Source of the DNA: an uncultured Pelagibacterales bacterium
Lineage (GTDB): Bacteria; Pseudomonadota; Alphaproteobacteria; TMED109
Direction of reading: 5' to 3'
NCBI GenBank assembly: GCA_913046335.1
Contig: CAJWSU010000004.1
Span: 30,260-94,259, forward strand
Length of the DNA stretch: 64,000 nucleotides
The position numbers and the translations under genes were made by a program. Below the pieces are notes generated by a model, which searched no databases, had not been told where the DNA came from, and saw only the letters and a program-made list of their open reading frames with translations. Below are positions 7,302-64,000 of this stretch, in pieces; position 1 is the stretch's first letter; each line of letters begins with the position of its first letter.

Positions 7302-9239
7302 TTATCTCTGAGGTGACATTATATTATTTTTATAAAAATATTTTAATTTATTTTTTAATACAGGTAAACATAAGATAAAAGATAATAGCCAAATTCCATG
7401 ACTATATCTGGCTACGCCTTCATAAAATAAAAATACTAAATGGCCAGCGATGAGAGAAACTGCTAGCAGTTTTTCAATAATATTCATTTTTTTATTAAAA
7501 ATAATGAATATTAAACATAGTAAAATAACTATATACCAAGGTTCAGTATAAGATACCCAAATACTAAGGTGATGTATAACCTGGTTACAGGAATCAGATA
7601 GAGTGCTTAAGCAATTATTCCATTTTTCAGGGCCATTTCTCATGTTATTGCCAATAGTTGCAGAATTTGTAAGAGGCACAAAAACATTTCCAAAAAAGTA
7701 ATTATGATAAGTAATTAAAAGAATAGGGCTAAAACCTATACCTAAGGCTATGACTTTTTGTATCCCTTTATTATAAATAAAATATAAAGATAAGCCAGTA
7801 AACAATACCGCCACAAAAGGTAAGAAGTTAGGTCGTAAAGAAATAGCTACCGCTAATAAAAAACCAATAATTAAGAGATCTCTATTAGTATAGATAATAT
7901 TATCTCTTTTCCATAATAGAGCAAAGGCAGCAATAAGAGTTGATATTGCAATGCCTGCACCAAAACCTTCTATAGTATATTTAGCAAGATAAATTTGATA
8001 AAACCCAAAGGCCTCAAATATAGGTATAATAAAAAAACAAATAAGCATTATAATTTGCCATTTTTTATTAAATAATTTTTTTAGTAAACTCCTTATTGTA
8101 ATTGGAGTTAAAGAAATAATTAGTAGTAACCCAAAAATGCTTTCACCAAAAAAAGGCATTGTCATTCCTAATAAATATCTCATTCCTGGCATCATATAAA
8201 ATATATTTTCATTTCCTCTAAGCCATCCTATAATATCATGATGAGATAAAGATTCTACCATTTCACGCGCATAAGAATAATGTGTTAGTCCATCATTACC
8301 TCTTCCCATATAAGGGAGTCCGGAGAAACTAGAAGGATGCCCACCTCTGTAATGTTGGTCTGCCATATATAATAAAATGCTTATAACAGAAAGTGCTATT
8401 AAAGTTAGGTCTTCTCTATTTAGCTTCGTAAGTAATAATAATATAATAATGGCATTTAAAATTGATAAAATGTAGATTAATGTTTGTCTGTAGTTTTTAG
8501 TAGTAATGCTAAGTGGAATGTTTTTATTAAAATCAAAAGCATAAATTTTCAAGTATTTATCTTTTCCCCATTGTTCTTTATCTAATGTCATACATTTCTT
8601 ATTTTGAGTAAAATATTCTTGCCAACGTTCATTATCTTCAATGTATAATTTCCCAGTCCAACAAAGTTTTTCTGAAGCCATTGTATTAGGAAGAATAAAT
8701 GAAAAAATTAAAGGATAATATGCACCAGAAGAACCTAGGTCACTTCCAAAATAATTATATTTTGCATTATTTAATGTCCCAATTCGTAAAGAATACCTAT
8801 CTTTAAAGTTTAAAGATTTTATTGTTCTAGACATTTGTGGGTTATCAAAAAAAGCATCTGCTGAAAATGCCCATGGGTTTTCTGTTTTTTCTGTATTGGC
8901 TGGGTAAGAATCAAAAGGTTGCTTTAAACTACCCCATTCATTTTTTGCCATATTGGTAATATCTTCTGGTAATATATTTTTTAAATAAATATCTTCCGGA
9001 GAATAGATTTGTTCTCCCATTTCTACATTAGGGGGATAAATTTGACTTTTTACAATGAAAAGACTGGCAAGCAAAATGCATGATATTAACCACATTATGG
9101 GTTTAGTATTAATTTTATTTAAGAATATTCCATATAGTGCGACCAAAATGGTAACAAATGCTCCCCAATTAGCTAAAGGAAGCCCAAAACATAATATAAT
9201 AAAAAGTAATAATATTATGTTTAATAAATATCTCTTCAT
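7302..9239 (-). CDS. large polytopic membrane protein, ArnT/PMT-like GT-C glycosyltransferase with an N-terminal extension
   Basis: NDGLTHYSYAREMVESL resembles the ArnT DExRYAEISREM loop and is followed by about 10 TM helices. The track ORF runs to 9275, but the ATG at 9239 abuts the upstream stop (9241-9243). Confidence 0.65.
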   Translation of the reverse strand: MKRYLLNIILLLFIILCFGLPLANWGAFVTILVALYGIFLNKINTKPIMWLISCILLASLFIVKSQIYPPNVEMGEQIYSPEDIYLKNILPEDITNMAKNEWGSLKQPFDSYPANTEKTENPWAFSADAFFDNPQMSRTIKSLNFKDRYSLRIGTLNNAKYNYFGSDLGSSGAYYPLIFSFILPNTMASEKLCWTGKLYIEDNERWQEYFTQNKKCMTLDKEQWGKDKYLKIYAFDFNKNIPLSITTKNYRQTLIYILSILNAIIILLLLTKLNREDLTLIALSVISILLYMADQHYRGGHPSSFSGLPYMGRGNDGLTHYSYAREMVESLSHHDIIGWLRGNENIFYMMPGMRYLLGMTMPFFGESIFGLLLIISLTPITIRSLLKKLFNKKWQIIMLICFFIIPIFEAFGFYQIYLAKYTIEGFGAGIAISTLIAAFALLWKRDNIIYTNRDLLIIGFLLAVAISLRPNFLPFVAVLFTGLSLYFIYNKGIQKVIALGIGFSPILLITYHNYFFGNVFVPLTNSATIGNNMRNGPEKWNNCLSTLSDSCNQVIHHLSIWVSYTEPWYIVILLCLIFIIFNKKMNIIEKLLAVSLIAGHLVFLFYEGVARYSHGIWLLSFILCLPVLKNKLKYFYKNNIMSPQR

Positions 9240-13040: not shown

Positions 13041-15839
13041 ATGGATGTTAACGAAAAAAAAAATGATAAAAAAAGATCGCTGACATTAGTTGATGGATCA
13101 GGCTTTATTTTTAGAGCTTACTATGCATTGCCACCTCTTACTAGAAAAGATGGAACTCCTATAAACGCCGTTATGGGATATTGCAATATGATTTGGCGTT
13201 TAATTGCAGAAACAAAAACAGACTCTTTAGCTGTGATATTTGATACAGCCTCTAAAACATTTAGAAATGAAATATACAAGGAATATAAGGCTAATAGATC
13301 TGAAGCACCTGAAGATTTGGTTCCACAATTTTCTTTAATACGAGAAGCTACTAAAGCTTTTAATATTCCATATATAGAATTAGCCGGATATGAAGCAGAC
13401 GATATTATAGCAACATACGCAAGTCAGGCAAGTAGTGAAGGATGGAAAGTTGATATAATTTCATCTGATAAAGACCTGATGCAGTTAGTTAAAGATAACA
13501 TCAAAATGATAGATCCAATGAAGATGATTACTATCGATAAAGAACAGGTATTTAAAAAATTTGGTGTGTATCCTGATAGGGTAATAGATGTACAAGCTTT
13601 AGCAGGAGATAGCACAGATAATATACCTGGAGTTCCAGGTATAGGTATCAAGACAGCAGCAGAATTAATTAATCATTATGGTGATTTAGAATCATTGCTA
13701 ACGCGAGCACATGAAATTAAACAGCCTAAAAGAAAAGAAAATTTAGTTAATTTTGCTGATTTAGCAAGAATTAGTATGAAGTTAGTTACGTTATCTGATG
13801 ATGTCAAAGAAATAGAAGATTTTAAAAAATTTAAGAGGCAGGATATTGACCTTAATAAGCTAAAAACATTTTTATTAGCACAAGGCTTTAATAGTCTTAT
13901 AGGAAGGTTACCTAATGAAGATGGCTTTATTGAAAGTAAAAGTGCCTACGTAGCTTTGCCACAAGATAAAGAAGAAACACAATCTAAAATAGATATAGAT
14001 ATTAATTATAAGCTTATTACAGAAGAAAAAGATTTAATAAATTGGGTTAGAGGTATTTATTTAAAAGGCTTTGTCGCAGTGGACACCGAAACAACTTCTA
14101 TAGATTCTGTTTCAGCTGATTTAGTAGGCGTTTCTTTATCTTTTGAACCTGGAAATGCTATTTATATTCCTCTTGCACATAAGTCTAAAGAAGGAGCAAT
14201 AATTGCTGAAGAGATTAAACAAATAGATGTTAACAAAGCATTATCTATTTTAAAACCGATTCTAGAGGATCCTAGTATTATAAAAATTGGACAAAATATT
14301 AAATATGATATGACCATATTAAAAAATGCAGGAAATATTAATATTTATCCTATTCATGACACAATGTTAATGTCTTTTGTTTTAGACGCTGGTAAGCACA
14401 TTGGACATGGTATGGATGCACTTGCTAAAGCTCATTTAAATATTTCCACAATAAGTTATTCAGAGATTACTGGAAAAGGCAAAGATCAAGTAACTTTTGA
14501 CTATGTTCCCTTAGATAAAGCACTAGTATATGCCGCCCAAGATGCTGATATTACTTTACGTTTATATTTAAACTTTAATAAAAGGTTAATTAAAGAAAAA
14601 ATGGTTACTCTTTATGAATCTATAGAGCGACCTCTTCCATCTGTAATTTCTAATATGGAAAGGAATGGCGTAGGTATTGATCCATCATACCTTAAAGGTT
14701 TAAGTACTGTTTTTTTAAAAAAAATGATTCCCATTCAGGAAAAAATATTTGTTTTAGCTGAAGAAGATTTTAATATAGCTTCTCCTAAACAATTAGGAGA
14801 AATTTTATATAATAAGCTTGGTTTAAAAGGTGGAAAAAAAGGTAAGTCTGGTTTGTATTCTACTTCAGCTGAGGTTTTAGAAAAACTAGGGCAAGATGGA
14901 AATGAAATATGTAAATTAGTAATAAGTTGGAGAGGATTGCAAAAATTAAAAAGCACTTACTCAGATGCTTTAGTAGAGCAGATAAATCCTTCTACTAATA
15001 GAGTACATACTCACTTTCAGATGACTGGAGCTATGACAGGAAGGTTTTCTTCGAGCAATCCTAATTTGCAAAATATACCAATAAAATCTGCAGACGGACG
15101 TGCAATAAGAAAAGCTTTTATAGCTCAAAAAGGTAAAAAGTTAATTGCTTTTGATTACTCTCAGATAGAGTTAAGATTATTAGCTGAAGTAGCTAAGATC
15201 GATCCTTTAATAGAAGCTTTTAAAAATGGTATTGATATTCATAAATTGACTGCTTCACAAGTTTTTGGAATTAAACCAGAAGATGTAACAGGCGAAATGA
15301 GAAGAAACGCAAAAGCTATCAATTTTGGAATAATATATGGACAGAGTGCATTTGGTTTAGCAAAGCAATTGAATATTTCTAGAACAGAAGCTAAAGAATA
15401 TATAGATTCTTATTTTTTTCAGTACCCAGGAATAAAAAAATATATGGAAAATACCCAAGATTTTGCTAGAAGAAATGGATATGTGGAAACGGTCTTTGGC
15501 AGAAGGTGTTATGTTCCAAGTATAAATGATAAAAATCCTATGAGACGAGCAGGAGCAGAACGGCAAGCTATTAATGCCCCATTGCAAGGAGCAGCAGCTG
15601 ACATAATTAAAAGGTCTATGAAAAATATACCTGAAATATTAAATGATCATAAAATTGATGCCAAGTTAATTTTGCAAGTACATGATGAATTAATATTTGA
15701 ATGTGCAGAAATAGAAGCAGATAGACTGATCCCTATAATAAAGTCTATAATGGTGAACGCACCTAATCCCTCATTTAAAATGATAGTGCCTTTAGAGGTG
15801 GAGGCTGGAATAGGAAATAATTGGGATGAAGCGCATTAA
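13041..15839 (+). CDS. polA: DNA polymerase I
   Basis: 932 aa. It has a 5' nuclease domain (LVDGSGFIFRAYYA), a 3'-5' exonuclease domain (VAVDTETTS), and polymerase motifs DYSQIELR, RRNAKAINFGIIYG and QVHDEL. Confidence 0.98.
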   Translation: MDVNEKKNDKKRSLTLVDGSGFIFRAYYALPPLTRKDGTPINAVMGYCNMIWRLIAETKTDSLAVIFDTASKTFRNEIYKEYKANRSEAPEDLVPQFSLIREATKAFNIPYIELAGYEADDIIATYASQASSEGWKVDIISSDKDLMQLVKDNIKMIDPMKMITIDKEQVFKKFGVYPDRVIDVQALAGDSTDNIPGVPGIGIKTAAELINHYGDLESLLTRAHEIKQPKRKENLVNFADLARISMKLVTLSDDVKEIEDFKKFKRQDIDLNKLKTFLLAQGFNSLIGRLPNEDGFIESKSAYVALPQDKEETQSKIDIDINYKLITEEKDLINWVRGIYLKGFVAVDTETTSIDSVSADLVGVSLSFEPGNAIYIPLAHKSKEGAIIAEEIKQIDVNKALSILKPILEDPSIIKIGQNIKYDMTILKNAGNINIYPIHDTMLMSFVLDAGKHIGHGMDALAKAHLNISTISYSEITGKGKDQVTFDYVPLDKALVYAAQDADITLRLYLNFNKRLIKEKMVTLYESIERPLPSVISNMERNGVGIDPSYLKGLSTVFLKKMIPIQEKIFVLAEEDFNIASPKQLGEILYNKLGLKGGKKGKSGLYSTSAEVLEKLGQDGNEICKLVISWRGLQKLKSTYSDALVEQINPSTNRVHTHFQMTGAMTGRFSSSNPNLQNIPIKSADGRAIRKAFIAQKGKKLIAFDYSQIELRLLAEVAKIDPLIEAFKNGIDIHKLTASQVFGIKPEDVTGEMRRNAKAINFGIIYGQSAFGLAKQLNISRTEAKEYIDSYFFQYPGIKKYMENTQDFARRNGYVETVFGRRCYVPSINDKNPMRRAGAERQAINAPLQGAAADIIKRSMKNIPEILNDHKIDAKLILQVHDELIFECAEIEADRLIPIIKSIMVNAPNPSFKMIVPLEVEAGIGNNWDEAH

Positions 15840-57862: not shown

Positions 57863-59506
57863 ATGATTAAATCTATAGATAAAGTAGATATTTTTTTATC
57901 TTCAAATAATTATTGGAAGGTAACTAGTAAAAATAAAAATACAGTATGGTTTAAGGGGTATTTATATAATATGTCTATTACTGATTTAGTAAAACAAATA
58001 GTAGAACAAGATTCAGATACTATAAAATCTTTTTTAAATACATTAGATGGCCATTTTTCTATAATAGTTAAAACACCTAAATTTTATTTAATAGCTGTAG
58101 ATAAAATTAGATCTATTCCAATTATATGGGCTATAAAAAATAAAAATAATATATTGATTAGCGACCAAGGACAATATTTAAATAAAGAATTAAAACTTAA
58201 ATCTTCAGATATTGATTATTCTATCAGCAACGCGTTTGCAATTTCTGGATATACTATAGGAGATAATACTTTATATAGTAACGTTAAACAAGTTAGTCCT
58301 GGTAATTATTTATGGCTGGAAAACAAAAAAGTTACTATTAAACGTTATTATATTTGGCAACCTTGGAGCGCATTAGAATATAGAGTTAATTTGAGTTCGA
58401 AATTGAACAAAATTAATAAAAATATTTTTAAAAAATTAATTGATAGTGTCAATAATCGTCAAATAGTAGTGCCTCTTTCAGGAGGTTTAGATTCAAGGTT
58501 AGTTTTAGCAGGTTTAAAAAAGTACAATTATAAAAATGTTCTATGTATATCATATGGTTTAAAAAATAATAAGGACGCATATATTGCAAAAAAAGTTGCT
58601 CATAAACTAGGTTATAAGTGGATATTTATTGAGTATTCTAATAAAGAGTTTAGAAAACATTATTATTCTGAGGAATATAAAAAGTATACTAATTTTTGTG
58701 ATACTTTTACTTCCATACATTTTATAGGCGAATATATAATGCTATCCAAATTAAGTAATAATTTAGTTGAAAAAGATGCAATTTTTATTAATGGTCAATC
58801 GGGAGATTTTATCTCTGGAAATCACATTCCTTCAAATTTAGATGCAAAAAAAGAATACAGCGATAAACAAAAAGAAAAATTATTTTCTACATATCTTGTT
58901 AAGCATTACAAACATTGGAATATTTTAAAAAATAAAGATAATCTTGATAAAGTAGAAAATTTACTAAGTGAAGAAATAAATAAAATTGGAGGGTTTCCAT
59001 CTGATCAAAATAAGAATTATGGTATTTATGAATATATGGAATTTATGGACAGGCAATCAAAGTATGTTGTAAATGGACAGAGGAATTATGAATATTTTGG
59101 ATACGAATGGAGGCTGCCATTATGGGATAATGAATATATTGATTTTTGGGAAAAGGTTCCATTAAAATATAAAATAAATCAAACATTATATAAAGATACT
59201 TTGATAAAGTATAATTGGGGAAATGTTTGGCAAGAAATTAATATTAATCCATTAAAGATTTCTCCAAAGTGGATAATACCTATTCGTTTTATTTTCAAAC
59301 TATTTTTTATATTTCATGGAAAGAATAAATGGCATAAATATGAGAATAAGTATCTAGCATATTTTATGAGCAATTTAGTAGAGTACGCTCCATGGAGTTA
59401 TTTTCAAATTATTTTTGATAAAAGAGGTCACGAAAATGCAATTGGGTGGCTAATAGAGGACTATTTAAAGTATAAAGGCTTAAATTGGAAGGGGAATAAA
59501 CCTTAA
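57863..59506 (+). CDS. asparagine synthetase B-fold ATP-pyrophosphatase lacking the N-terminal catalytic Cys
   Basis: A PP-loop ([13 protein letters not shown]) and an AsnB-like C-terminal motif ([18 protein letters not shown]) are present. The N-terminus MIKSID has no Cys2. There is an Ntn-like beta region (LDGHFSIIV...[13 protein letters not shown]). Confidence 0.75.
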
Positions 59507-61326: not shown

Positions 61327-61590
61327 TTAAGTATATATATTTTTATATACAAATAAAAAAAACATTATAATAGCTAATATAAAAAATACTTTTAATTCTA
61401 GTAAATTTGTAACTATAATTTGCCAGATATCTATTGATAAGTTTAAAGATTCAATTAATTTTTGAAGTCCAATTAAGGAATTGACATGAATTAAGATCCA
61501 TAACTTTGCAAGAGAGATATTACTTTCATGTAAACTTAATATAAAAAATAAGATAGATATAAAGAGTAATTTTTTTTTTATAATTTTCAT
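61327..61590 (-). CDS. hypothetical small membrane protein
   Basis: 87 aa with 2-3 hydrophobic helices. No family recognised. It abuts the lepA stop. Confidence 0.4.
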   Translation of the reverse strand: MKIIKKKLLFISILFFILSLHESNISLAKLWILIHVNSLIGLQKLIESLNLSIDIWQIIVTNLLELKVFFILAIIMFFLFVYKNIYT

Positions 61591-62038: not shown

Positions 62039-62047
62039 ATAAATTAA

Positions 62048-62064
62048 TGTTCATAATATGAACA
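62048..62064. promoter_or_regulatory. 17-bp perfect palindrome TGTTCAT-aat-ATGAACA (operator candidate 1)
   Basis: Read directly. The same 7-bp arms recur 51 bp downstream with a different 3-nt centre. Confidence 0.55.
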
Positions 62065-62068
62065 TAAT

Positions 62069-62096
62069 TTGACATAATTATTTTATCATATAAGAT
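62069..62096 (+). promoter_or_regulatory. candidate sigma-70 promoter TTGACA-N16-TAAGAT between the two palindromes
   Basis: A consensus -35 hexamer lies at 62069-62074 and a TAnnnT -10 at 62091-62096. Confidence 0.4.
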
Positions 62097-62098
62097 AC

Positions 62099-62115
62099 TG
62101 TTCATGCAATGAACA
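62099..62115. promoter_or_regulatory. 17-bp perfect palindrome TGTTCAT-gca-ATGAACA (operator candidate 2)
   Basis: Read directly. It sits 2 nt downstream of the candidate -10, roughly at the expected +1, and 14 nt before the regulator start codon. Confidence 0.55.
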
Positions 62116-62129
62116 TCAATCAGTAATTT

Positions 62130-62738
62130 ATGGTATATATGGCTTTTAATTTAAATAAAAAAATTACTTTAAATCTTCTTTCTACATTAGAGGAGGATGG
62201 AGATATAACCCAAAGAAACATAGCAAGTAAGTTGGGTGTAGCTTTAGGTCTAGCTAATGCGTATTTAAAAAAATCTGTAGAAAAAGGTTATGTAAAAATT
62301 AAACAAGTACCTAGAAAGAGATATAGTTATTATATAACTCCTAAAGGATTTGCAGAGAAAGCAGCTTTGACTGCAGAGTATTTTACTTCGTCGTATGCAT
62401 TTTTTAGAAAGTCTAAAAATGATTGTGAGTTAATTCTAAATGAGTGTGCAATAAATGGTATATATGATGTTATTTTATCAAATATTTCAGAGTTAGCTGA
62501 AATTACTATTTTAACTAGTTTAGATAGTAAGATAAATATTATAGGTGTCATAGATGAAGATAAGACTAGTTTTAATGGAGTAAATGTTTATAAAAACTTT
62601 TCTGATATTAAAAAGTATGATGGTATAATTTTAACTGAAGTAAATAAACCGCAGGAAAGGTATGATTATTTATCTAATAATTTTCCTTCACATAAAATTT
62701 TTAGTCCTGCTATTTTAAATATTAGGAAAAAAAAATGA
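62130..62738 (+). CDS. winged-helix (MarR-like, EPS-locus type) transcriptional regulator fused to a CoA_binding_3-like Rossmann domain
   Basis: The wHTH reads ITQRNIASKLGVALGLANAYLKKSVEKGYVKIKQVPRKRYSYYITPKG. The C-terminal half (IIGVIDEDKTSFNGVNVYKNFSDIKKYDGIILTE) resembles the N-terminal domain of EPS priming sugar transferases. Confidence 0.65.
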   Translation: MVYMAFNLNKKITLNLLSTLEEDGDITQRNIASKLGVALGLANAYLKKSVEKGYVKIKQVPRKRYSYYITPKGFAEKAALTAEYFTSSYAFFRKSKNDCELILNECAINGIYDVILSNISELAEITILTSLDSKINIIGVIDEDKTSFNGVNVYKNFSDIKKYDGIILTEVNKPQERYDYLSNNFPSHKIFSPAILNIRKKK

Positions 62739-63235
62739 ATAATTGGTGTGTTATTTATACGCATCAGGGCAAAGAATTGTATTCTGCTAGCGAATTAAAT
62801 AAACAAAATTTTAATATATATATGCCATCAATTATGAAAATAGTTAGACATTCAAGATATATTAAAAAAGTTTTAAAACCCTTTTTTCCTCGATATATTT
62901 TTGTAAATCTTCATTTAGATAACCAAGAATGGAGAAAAATAAATTATACAAGAGGTGTTGTAAAATTAATTACTTCTAATGAAAAGCCAATCATGATTTC
63001 GGAGTCGGTAATAAAAGAGTTAAAACTATTAGAAAATGATAAAGGTTTTATTGATGAAGCTTTTGTATCATCTTATAAACAAGGAGAAAAACTAGAAATT
63101 ACAAATGGTCCTCTAAAGGGAATTGCAGGGATTTTTGATGGTTTATCTGAAGATTTAAGAATTAAAGTTCTTCTTAATTTTATGGGAAAAACGATGAATG
63201 TACCCATTCATAATGATTGGGTTACAAGAGCTTAA
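62735..63235 (+). CDS. rfaH: RfaH-like specialised NusG paralog (NGN plus KOW domains)
   Basis: 166 aa. The protein aligns with E. coli RfaH: NWCVIYTHQGKE versus SWYLLYCKRGQL, KPFFPRYIFV versus EPLFPNYLFV, TRGV, and a KOW domain (GEKLEITNGPLKGIAGIF). Confidence 0.75.
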   Translation: MNNWCVIYTHQGKELYSASELNKQNFNIYMPSIMKIVRHSRYIKKVLKPFFPRYIFVNLHLDNQEWRKINYTRGVVKLITSNEKPIMISESVIKELKLLENDKGFIDEAFVSSYKQGEKLEITNGPLKGIAGIFDGLSEDLRIKVLLNFMGKTMNVPIHNDWVTRA

Positions 63236-63260
63236 TTTAAGCTCTAGCTTAAAATAATAA

Positions 63261-63286
63261 TAGGGTGATTTTGAATTTTCACCCTA
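63261..63286 (+). other. 8-bp stem hairpin TAGGGTGA-(10 nt)-TCACCCTA, 2 nt upstream of ops
   Basis: Read directly. There is no U-tract, so it is not a canonical terminator. Confidence 0.5.
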
Positions 63287-63288
63287 AT

Positions 63289-63300
63289 GGCGGTAGCGTG
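63289..63300 (+). promoter_or_regulatory. ops (operon polarity suppressor) element GGCGGTAGCGTG
   Basis: This is an exact 12/12 match to the enterobacterial ops consensus GGCGGTAGnnTG on the coding (non-template) strand. It lies 27 nt upstream of the next gene and 53 nt downstream of the RfaH-like gene. Confidence 0.7.
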
Positions 63301-63327
63301 CCTAATATAGAAATATAGGAAAAATCA

Positions 63328-64000
63328 TTGAAAATTGGCATAATAACTTCTAATGAATTACGGCATAAGTTTTTTAGAAGATTGATATCTTTAAATAAAG
63401 ATTTAGAAATAGCTTTCTGTATATGTGAGGAGGATGTTACAAGTCAAAAAAATACAGTAATGGATTCTAGCAATTATTCTGCTATTGAAAAAAAGCATTT
63501 TATTGCCAGGCAAAATTCTGAAGAAGATTTTTTTAAATCTTTTGTTGATTATACTTCAGACGCTTTAAATACTATTTTAGTAAAAAAAAATATAATAAAT
63601 GAAGATATAAATTTGCAATCATATATAGACAAATGCGAAGTAGAAATAATAGTATCTTATGGTTGTTCTATAATAAGGGAACCTATATTAACTAAATATA
63701 GTGGAAGGTTTATCAACATTCATTTAGGTTTATCTCCCTATTATATAGGGTCTGGAACAAATTTTTGGCCACTAGTTAACAATGAGCCAGAATATATAGG
63801 TGTTACCTATATGCATATAAATAATAAAATAGATGGAGGTAATATTATTCATCAGATCAGGCCAACAATATATGAAACAGACAATGTCCATAGCATTGGA
63901 AATAGACTTATTAGAGATATGACACTATTTCTGCCAAACATATTAAAAATTAATAATAATGCTAATGTTGTTGAGCAGGCTAAAAATACTAATCAAAAAA
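63328..64000 (+). CDS. formyltransferase-family protein (sugar N-formyltransferase-like), 3' end beyond the window
   Basis: My own translation from the TTG at 63328 is MKIGIITSNELRHKFF...GRFINIHLGLSPYYIGSGTNFWPL...GVTYMHINNKIDGGNIIHQ (N-x-H...D catalytic pattern). The frame is open to the window end, with AGGA 8 nt upstream. Confidence 0.75.
   Translation, partial: MKIGIITSNELRHKFFRRLISLNKDLEIAFCICEEDVTSQKNTVMDSSNYSAIEKKHFIARQNSEEDFFKSFVDYTSDALNTILVKKNIINEDINLQSYIDKCEVEIIVSYGCSIIREPILTKYSGRFINIHLGLSPYYIGSGTNFWPLVNNEPEYIGVTYMHINNKIDGGNIIHQIRPTIYETDNVHSIGNRLIRDMTLFLPNILKINNNANVVEQAKNTNQK

Follow-up and report, generated by a model that had tools for sequence, protein, structure and literature searches.

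What is an exact copy of the Escherichia coli ops element doing in a genome with a G+C content of about 29%, shortly after a gene whose product resembles the very factor that reads this element? RfaH together with ops is the textbook example of a sequence-specific transcription elongation factor, and is known almost entirely from enterobacteria. The stretch of DNA that raises the question, here called the window, comprises 64,000 nucleotides (64 kb) of contig CAJWSU010000004.1 from an uncultured Pelagibacterales bacterium. Near its end, overlapping genes for a winged helix-turn-helix (wHTH) regulator and an RfaH-like NusG paralog are followed by the 12-nt word GGCGGTAGCGTG and then by a formyltransferase gene (Table 1). 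We consider it likely that these parts form a locus-encoded, RfaH-type processivity (antitermination) cassette that heads a variable surface-glycan cluster.

The word is the sole match to GGCGGTAGCGTG in the window, even if two mismatches are allowed. It stands on the sense strand exactly where a first, sequence-only reading of this DNA had placed it, 53 nt past the stop codon of the 166-aa RfaH-like open reading frame (ORF) and 27 nt ahead of the TTG start of the formyltransferase gene, in the context TAGGGTGATTTTGAATTTTCACCCTAAT-GGCGGTAGCGTG-CCTAATATAGAAATATAGGAAAAATCA-TTG. RfaH targets are recognized by GGCGGTAGnnTG on the non-template strand upstream of the operon, and the window offers the complete 12-mer in this orientation before its first glycan gene. 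The expectation in that earlier reading that the motif should occur far less than once per window by chance is also borne out. Under order-0 to order-2 models, 7e-5 to 2e-4 copies of the 12-mer are expected on both strands of the window (about 1e-4), and ~6e-8 copies on the sense strand of the spacer between paralog and formyltransferase. The consensus GGCGGTAGNNTG has no occurrence in 1.38 Mb of sequence from 80 unrelated lepA loci with 45% G+C. E. coli RfaH acts in trans on several unlinked ops-bearing operons; the 64 kb of the window and the 20-kb loci of relatives each have only one ops element. A second 8-nt core in the window, GCGGTAGC at 7846-7853 on the minus strand, was judged to be a chance match because it resides within a 657-aa ORF and has neither a preceding hairpin nor CACC.

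Whether the element matters should be evident from its fate in relatives. A genome scan with the paralog as single query protein yielded no relative among the GTDB species representatives, and sister loci were therefore sought through homologs of LepA (82-87% identity). A word-based protein search revealed a sub-clade at 49-98% identity and relatives at ~30% (some annotated as Pyrinomonadaceae), but missed the sisters at 35-47%; an exhaustive protein search returned 1,453 paralog representatives at E<=1e-10, many of them 162-171 aa long and 29-43% identical. Eight lineages with DNA could be compared in this way: the window, L011, L013, L097, L101, L102, L103 and L104. One further candidate, the 2300-bp contig L012/L098, has ~1x coverage and was set aside because it looks like an assembly chimera: unrelated sequence is fused in it to a MurJ-like ORF, the end of the wHTH protein and residues 1-56 of the paralog.

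An element is found past the paralog stop codon in seven of the eight lineages, L102 being the exception, and conservation at the orthologous position, which the sequence-only reading had proposed as a check, is thereby established. Six of these seven carry the core GCGG(T/A)AGC; the seventh, L097, whose paralog is 49% identical, reads CACCCTAATGGCGG-AGCATG and so lacks position 6 (GCGG-AGC). On the sense strand, each locus has a single copy of the core, at the ops position; the sole other sense match is an unrelated one in L102. Relatives at 74-75% identity have, at the same place, GGCGGTAGCGTG itself (L013-15) or GGCGGAAGCGTG (L011), and the elements of the LepA-derived sisters read TTTTCACCCGGAG-TGCGGTAGCGTG (L101), ATTTCACCCAGAC-TGCGGTAGCTAT(TG) (L103) and TTTTCACCTTAAG-TGCGGAAGCGTG (L104). 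Natural variation thus affects position 1 (G/T), position 6 (T, A or deleted) and, in one lineage, positions 9-12. Residues G4, G5, A7 and G8 are invariant in all seven lineages, and the pause features G(-10) and TG are kept. The same four positions are those at which substitutions (G4C, G5A, A7T and G8C) abolish RfaH recruitment in E. coli, where C3:G8 forms a needed stem (PMC5995543).

Position is preserved along with sequence. The distance from the paralog stop codon to ops is 47-54 nt, whereas that from ops to the next start codon is 18-58 nt, in spacers whose flanking sequence diverges and behind paralogs that share 31-50% identity. When L101-L104 are compared with the window, identity falls from 82-86% for LepA and 67-72% for EamA to 43-46% for the wHTH protein and 35-42% for the paralog. 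The presumed reader has thus changed far more than the DNA signal that it would read. The two regulators either change at a much higher rate than the genes around them or are swapped together with the island.

The conserved architecture extends upstream of the 12-mer. An 8-bp hairpin had been described as ending 2 nt before the motif, and its arms, TAGGGTGA (63261-63268) and TCACCCTA (63279-63286), are indeed fully complementary. A hairpin precedes ops in the same register in all element-bearing lineages (7/7), with 53 of 60 cells paired and with compensatory changes at three stem positions (T:A/C:G, A:T/C:G/T:A and G:C/A:T). This register was placed by hand and then checked by script; MAFFT with RNAalifold misaligned the variable 5′ arms of the seven elements and recovered only the 2-bp mini-stem of ops. 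Because folding energy is clearly better than that of shuffled sequences in the window only (z = -3.9) and modestly so in the other lineages, the evidence for the hairpin is its covariation and not its energy. On its 3′ side, the hairpin stops 1-3 nt short of ops position 1, which corresponds to approximately -13 to -15 from the predicted pause (T11 = -1), and its loops range from 3 to 11 nt, none being of the UNCG type. A stem-loop, a few nucleotides and then GGCGGUAG, located 5′ of polysaccharide genes, is the anatomy of the JUMPStart element, and the same arrangement recurs in seven lineages. The other hairpin of the spacer (hairpin 1 in Table 1) shows a compensatory C:G to T:A change in the ~75%-identity relatives L011 and L013, but was not seen in L097, L101, L103 or L104, and its window copy has no U-tract. 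Scans of the sequence between the wHTH and paralog genes and ops detected no U-tract terminator or terminator-like site, nor a consensus promoter.

The protein encoded ahead of the element is best described as an RfaH-type NusG paralog, as had been proposed earlier. Among the NCBIfam hidden Markov models (HMMs), TIGR01955 RfaH gives 112.5 bits, followed by NF006534 RfaH (89.3), UpxY (80.6), LoaP (69.3) and NusG (55.6), and RfaH is the top-scoring family for all 11 paralog proteins tested (100-122 bits in the relatives). E. coli RfaH, to which the paralog is 28% identical, is also the best sequence match among solved structures (E=3e-13, full length), and the second-best class is the NusG-RNA complex 8f5g. 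The two-domain NGN and KOW organization of a ~160-aa factor is present, with NGN at residues 3-96 and the RfaH HMM aligned over positions 1-156 of 159. An AlphaFold2 model based on 125 sequences, mostly homologs at ~30% identity, reached a predicted local distance difference test score (pLDDT) of 85.6 and has an NGN fold and a five-strand, all-beta, KOW-like C-terminal domain (CTD); an alignment of six clade sequences gave an uninformative pLDDT of 38. The N-terminal domain (NTD) of the model superimposes on that of RfaH (8pen_P) with a root-mean-square deviation of 1.8 A over 101 columns. In Foldseek searches, the entire model can be aligned to RfaH in its active, ops-bound state (8phk, 6c6s) and to NusG, but only its NTD to autoinhibited RfaH (5ond, 2oug, 8pfg). 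At the autoinhibition positions E48, I93 and F130 of E. coli RfaH the window paralog has K48, I93 and F134, and the E48 equivalent is K or R throughout the clade. Loss of E48 renders E. coli RfaH constitutively active (PMC13015549, PMC7593976). The model weakly suggests a CTD in the active-like beta-barrel form, and thus a factor that is not autoinhibited.

Several observations weigh against a simple transfer of the enterobacterial scheme to this locus. All family HMM scores of the paralogs are under the curated cut-offs, including those of the RfaH equivalogs (144.5 bits for TIGR01955 and 124 for NF006534). The same is true of UpxY (72.6-88.8 bits across the paralogs; cut-off of 100 for NF033644), LoaP (44.5-79.3; 125 for NF033641) and housekeeping NusG (44.6-69.8; 135.7 for TIGR00922). 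The side chains through which E. coli RfaH contacts ops are only partly kept, with K10/R16/H20/R23/R73 corresponding to H10/Y16/E20/K23/R73 in the window paralog, which also has Q24 and T72. In L101 to L104, position 73 is occupied by Y, F, Y and P, respectively, and three of these four lineages still have the element. Furthermore, T6 of ops, the flipped base that E. coli RfaH reads with a pocket of H20/R23/Q24/R73, is replaced by A in L011 and L104 and missing from L097; a T6A change in E. coli reduces the response ~3-fold in vitro and is strongly defective in vivo (PMC5995543). In L102 the paralog gene is present, but just a 7-nt spacer follows it and no ops-like word is found nearby. The Rfam JUMPstart model RF01707 matches 63263-63300 over its full length with 15.0 bits, below the gathering threshold of 35 bits, and gives no match at E<=10 in six sister loci, such that the element cannot be assigned to this family. 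Finally, the co-directional unit after ops comprises three genes and ~3 kb in the window lineage, which is short for a system usually linked to long operons. Since the contact residues and T6 depart from E. coli, strict membership in the RfaH equivalog is not established, and readout of ops by this paralog probably differs in detail from that in E. coli.

These departures lend some weight to a reading in which recruitment is led by RNA. In the manner of LoaP, which requires a leader RNA hairpin (PMC12691694), the paralog might recognize the nascent hairpin with its invariant UCACC 3′ arm, and the GC-rich word would then be only a generic pause or a part of the RNA signal, rather than a non-template DNA ligand of the E. 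coli kind. A hairpin maintained by covariation with an invariant CACC, ops-contact residues that are poorly conserved, a variable T6 and the rank of the NusG-RNA complex 8f5g among the structural matches are all compatible with this idea. However, GCGG(T/A)AGC is conserved far beyond the needs of a generic pause, as those bases vary in the consensus pause (PMC5995543). Moreover, LoaP is the lowest-scoring of the specialized paralog families (44-79 bits), the loop of 3 to 11 nt is not of the UNCG type, and the comparable upstream region of the UpxY site works as duplex DNA and not as RNA (PMC11685472). We therefore regard RNA-led recruitment as unlikely.

Alternatively, the hairpins and the GC-rich word could be a factor-independent attenuator, a pause or an mRNA-processing or stability element that separates two transcription units, with the paralog acting elsewhere or loading in cis by a sequence-blind, co-translational route. 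It is difficult to explain, without some link to the protein, why an exact 12-nt ops follows directly upon an RfaH-family gene and does so in several diverged lineages, and no U-tract terminator was detected. The proposal draws on the presence of two hairpins within a 92-nt spacer and on L102, which has the paralog without the element. It also draws on the modelled beta-barrel CTD with K or R instead of E at residue 48, a state that has been tied to ops-independent cis recruitment (PMC13015549), although the model leans on the ~30%-identity alignment and the shallow alignment reached a pLDDT of only 38. On balance, an element that functions independently of the paralog seems improbable to us.

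A third proposal, very unlikely in our view, is that the glycan operon has an internal promoter whose -10 element and G+C-rich discriminator are formed by CACCCTAAT-GGCGG, and that the likeness to ops is a coincidence. CCTAAT does resemble a -10 hexamer next to a GC-rich stretch, and the block is conserved in the sub-clade of the window, but in L101, L103 and L104 TAAT gives way to GGAG, AGAC and TAAG, with the GCGG..AGC core retained. Furthermore, there is no conserved -35 element at the proper distance, the promoter scan found no plus-strand promoter-like site at 62900-63600, and a 12/12 match to ops is expected by chance only ~1e-4 times per window. The latter value, together with conservation of the same position in diverged lineages, makes a functionless chance occurrence, for which only the short length of the motif speaks, a negligible prospect.

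The RfaH-type cassette that we favour as the explanation also takes in the wHTH gene, which precedes the paralog gene and in each lineage overlaps it by 1-8 nt. Almost the only family match of the wHTH protein, and its best, is MarR_EPS (TIGR04176), which spans the N-terminal 100 residues and gives 64.9 bits in the window and 68-71 bits in the sisters (64.9-70.6 bits overall, below the cut-off of 88); Pfam HTH_24 matches at 7.8e-10. No Pfam or NCBIfam match was obtained for the C-terminal half (residues ~100-202; 62430-62738), which may be a ligand-sensing domain. The length of the protein is kept (202-208 aa) in all sister lineages.

Upstream of this gene, a sigma70-like promoter candidate is flanked by two inverted repeats whose half-sites, (C/T)GTTCA..TGAAC(A/G), recur ahead of the wHTH gene in L011, L101, L102, L103 and L104. 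Both half-site pairs and an identical -35 TTGACA are kept in L011, with different repeat centres. An order of TTGAC(G) or TTGCGT, inverted repeat, -10-like hexamer and second inverted repeat is found in L101, L102 and L104, where L101 and L102 combine TTGAC(G) with TACAAT or TATAAT, and L103 has one repeat. Because promoter-like matches are at chance level overall in such AT-rich DNA (26 found versus 21.9 expected), it is this conservation that argues for the promoter candidate. The inverted repeats are probably operators of the MarR_EPS-like regulator, which probably controls its own synthesis through them. Based upon the overlapping genes, the conserved upstream promoter and operators, the lack of a terminator-like site and the fixed spacing, we infer that the genes and the element are co-transcribed. 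Transcription of an autoregulated wHTH-paralog operon through to ops would be the most economical interpretation.

Table 1. Features of the proposed cassette and its surroundings, in window coordinates (position 1 is the first nucleotide of the 64-kb stretch)
Feature	Position	Strand	Remarks
Inverted repeat 1, ATGTTCAT-AAT-ATGAACAT	62047-62065	+	Candidate operator 1 of the wHTH regulator
Sigma70-like promoter candidate, TTGACA-16-TAAGAT	62069-62096	+	10/12 consensus matches
Inverted repeat 2, TGTTCAT-GCA-ATGAACA	62099-62115	+	Candidate operator 2, directly past the -10 element
Winged-helix regulator gene, 202 aa	62130-62738	+	MarR_EPS-like N-terminus; stop codon overlaps paralog start (ATGA)
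RfaH-like NusG paralog gene, 166 aa	62735-63235	+	Pfam NusG NGN 9.4e-19; TIGR01955 112.5 bits
Hairpin 1, AGAGCTTAA-T-TTAAGCTCT	63227-63245	+	9 bp; overlaps paralog stop codon
Hairpin 2	63261-63286	+	8 bp, 10-nt loop; candidate nascent-RNA pause hairpin; 3′ arm with invariant CACC
ops element, GGCGGTAGCGTG	63289-63300	+	Non-template strand reading; predicted pause at T11 (63299)
Formyltransferase gene, 271 aa in full	63328-64000	+	Pfam Formyl_trans_N; gene cut by window end

How might such a cassette work? The promoter with its two flanking operators would drive a bicistronic message for the wHTH protein and the RfaH-like factor, and RNA polymerase would run on through the 92-nt spacer into ops. 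It would be expected to halt there under the combined influence of the nascent-RNA hairpin, located ~13-15 nt behind the RNA 3′ end, and of the consensus-pause features (G at -10, TG at -1/+1). For loading, the NGN domain of the factor could then use the GCGG(T/A)AGC mini-hairpin exposed on the non-template strand and, perhaps, also the invariant CACC duplex just upstream. Polymerase modified in this way would resist polarity and Rho-type termination across whichever glycan cassette follows. With the gene of the factor ahead of the site that recruits it, the circuit would be a feed-forward one: factor made from early transcripts would act on the polymerases that come later.

By simple arithmetic, a ribosome terminating at the paralog stop codon is 64 nt behind a polymerase paused at 63299. 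The fixed distance between stop codon and ops could reflect either proximity-based loading in cis or inheritance of the module as a unit, with recombination breakpoints downstream of ops. More speculatively, and with considerable doubt on our part, the module might be a natural functioning intermediate of RfaH evolution. A non-autoinhibited factor that leaves the ribosome only ~50-65 nt behind the ops-paused polymerase would load in cis on its own transcript, and the module would be a fixed 'socket' for glycan cassettes that are swapped. If this loading scheme were true, the 47-54-nt spacing would be a functional requirement and not a consequence of shared ancestry, and if the module is a socket, then it would be one residing in a very abundant and otherwise regulator-poor group of marine bacteria.

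The cassette shares features with several characterized systems, and yet coincides with none of them. Like the E. coli system (PMC5995543, PMC7593976), it has an identical 12-nt word on the non-template strand just upstream of polysaccharide genes, the essential G4, G5, A7 and G8 without variation, a C3:G8 mini-hairpin, a TG pause and a ~160-aa NGN and KOW protein. A stem-loop ahead of ops is likewise a component of the Rfam JUMPstart motif (PMC2864571). In contrast, E. coli RfaH is encoded by a monocistronic gene and acts in trans, whereas the gene described here is directly upstream of the site, in cis. In addition, K10, R16 and H20 are replaced, R73 is lost in the sisters, E48 is K or R, and T6 varies. 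The E. coli ops has been described as a hairpin-less (type-2) pause, whereas the element described here has a hairpin at pause-hairpin distance.

In this latter respect, the element is closer to the opsX sites of Bacteroides, which Saba et al. (2024) contrasted with the hairpin-less E. coli ops and whose upstream region is duplex DNA contacted by NGN (PMC11685472). The resemblance to opsX is one of anatomy only: a multipartite site of ~40 nt composed of a pause hairpin, a mini-hairpin of the GCG..AGC type and a conserved upstream duplex. As with UpxY, a locus-specific NusG paralog sits within a variable capsule or glycan locus, and the paralogs diverge rapidly between loci. However, opsX is located in the leader upstream of upxY, whereas the site described here is 47-54 nt downstream of the paralog gene. 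Bacteroides also has eight competing loci with invertible promoters where one locus per genome region is seen here, and no UpxZ-like inhibitor gene is present next to the paralog, which is flanked by the wHTH and formyltransferase genes; its partner is the MarR_EPS-like regulator. The likeness to UpxY/UpxZ loci put forward in the sequence-only reading is therefore apt for the cis location and the pause-hairpin architecture, but it fails with regard to UpxZ and to the order of factor gene and site.

NusG paralogs encoded in cis have also been described beyond UpxY, and include TaA, LoaP and PrfaH. Wang et al. (2020) found that 18% of rfaH genes are alphaproteobacterial and that most non-enterobacterial RfaH clusters adjoin envelope genes, with one (CL4) beside an HTH regulator (PMC7593976), and cis-located RfaH homologs are on record (PMC13015549, PMC11880322). 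To call this arrangement 'unusual', as was done at first, was thus an overstatement. The present gene resembles clusters CL2-CL8 (PMC7593976) and the predicted monomorphic cis-located homologs (PMC13015549) in its location by or inside a putative envelope-polysaccharide target operon, and CL4 in its adjacent HTH regulator. As in the monomorphic homologs, its E48 equivalent is not acidic, and its CTD may be of the active-like beta form that the AlphaFold2 model weakly suggests. For those homologs, ops-free recruitment in cis has been proposed (PMC13015549), whereas a canonical ops-type site is conserved here. PrfaH of IncX3 plasmids (PMC11880322) is another RfaH-like factor that is co-transcribed with its target and has an ops-like signal in the same unit, which would parallel the co-transcription proposed here. 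Nevertheless, the PrfaH signal is located between the promoter and prfaH, the operon targeted serves plasmid conjugation (virB), and control is exerted by H-NS and not by a wHTH protein.

Given that RfaH is common near envelope genes in Alphaproteobacteria and that cis-encoded paralogs have been described, the kind of system is already known. What is new is that the site lies immediately 3′ of the factor gene at a fixed distance, that an ops word of the E. coli type is combined with a pause hairpin of the UpxY type, and that canonical contact residues have been lost. The host group and context are new as well, in that the cassette forms the conserved head of a variable region of glycan genes in a Pelagibacterales-like lineage. 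No paper on such a cassette was found in the literature searched, a negative that does not prove absence. The same 12-nt signal is paired here with proteins that share ~28% identity with E. coli RfaH and are short of several of its DNA-contact residues. This is relevant to the actual mode of ops readout and to the share of ops conservation that is due to pausing of RNA polymerase. Factor gene, pause hairpin and ops in a row with fixed spacing also offer a compact system for the cis-recruitment stage that has been proposed for RfaH evolution. Moreover, the module marks the conserved regulatory head of a hypervariable glycan region, a likely determinant of interactions with phages and grazers, in a streamlined lineage that is thought to be very poor in dedicated regulators.

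The marine alphaproteobacterial context of the host, which the sequence-only reading had taken to be streamlined and alphaproteobacterium-like, is supported by several database matches. LepA of the window is 85% identical to proteins of an NCBI 'Pelagibacterales bacterium' and of 'Alphaproteobacteria bacterium MarineAlpha9', and the top matches in a pattern-limited scan of species representatives are all alphaproteobacterial (63-68% identity). The placement in Pelagibacterales is thus based on names in the database at 85% LepA identity. Proteins of the window are also on record in the NCBI whole-genome shotgun entry MDTG01 and in marine metagenomes.

The variable nature of the glycan island, also suggested at the outset, is evident from the genes that follow ops: these change from lineage to lineage behind a constant regulator module. 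Contigs nearly identical to the window (~98% paralog protein identity, identical spacer), whose gene calls agree with the TTG start of the formyltransferase, next encode a polysaccharide deacetylase and a protein of 397 aa. Beyond the latter are a convergent epimerase gene and then NeuB-type nonulosonic-acid and sulfate-activation genes. The order lepA-EamA-wHTH-paralog is kept in 6/6 sister contexts, and in the five reached through LepA homologs (L101-L104 and one contig without DNA) it is followed each time by a different co-directional glycan set of 5.8 to >8 kb. The module is missing from a genome with 70% LepA identity.

Glycan genes (AsnB-like, NeuB, epimerases, aldo-keto reductase, formyltransferase/deacetylase) flank lepA on both sides, those upstream of it being at 57863-59506 in the window and also present in L101-L104, and they differ between the sister genomes. 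Because the genes on both sides vary, lepA-ORF-EamA-wHTH-paralog can be viewed as a conserved island in a variable glycan region. In L104, a trio of formyltransferase, deacetylase and 397-aa genes like that of the window is found on the opposite side of lepA and on the opposite strand. L102, a natural ops-less variant of the module, encodes a 98-aa acyl-carrier-protein-like product with an IDSLG motif (13680-13984), whose ORF begins 7 nt past the RfaH-like gene. Directly past lepA, the window has a small hydrophobic ORF of 87 aa on the minus strand (61327-61590) with no family match, and a small minus-strand ORF of 45-92 aa is called after lepA in all sister loci examined but L104.

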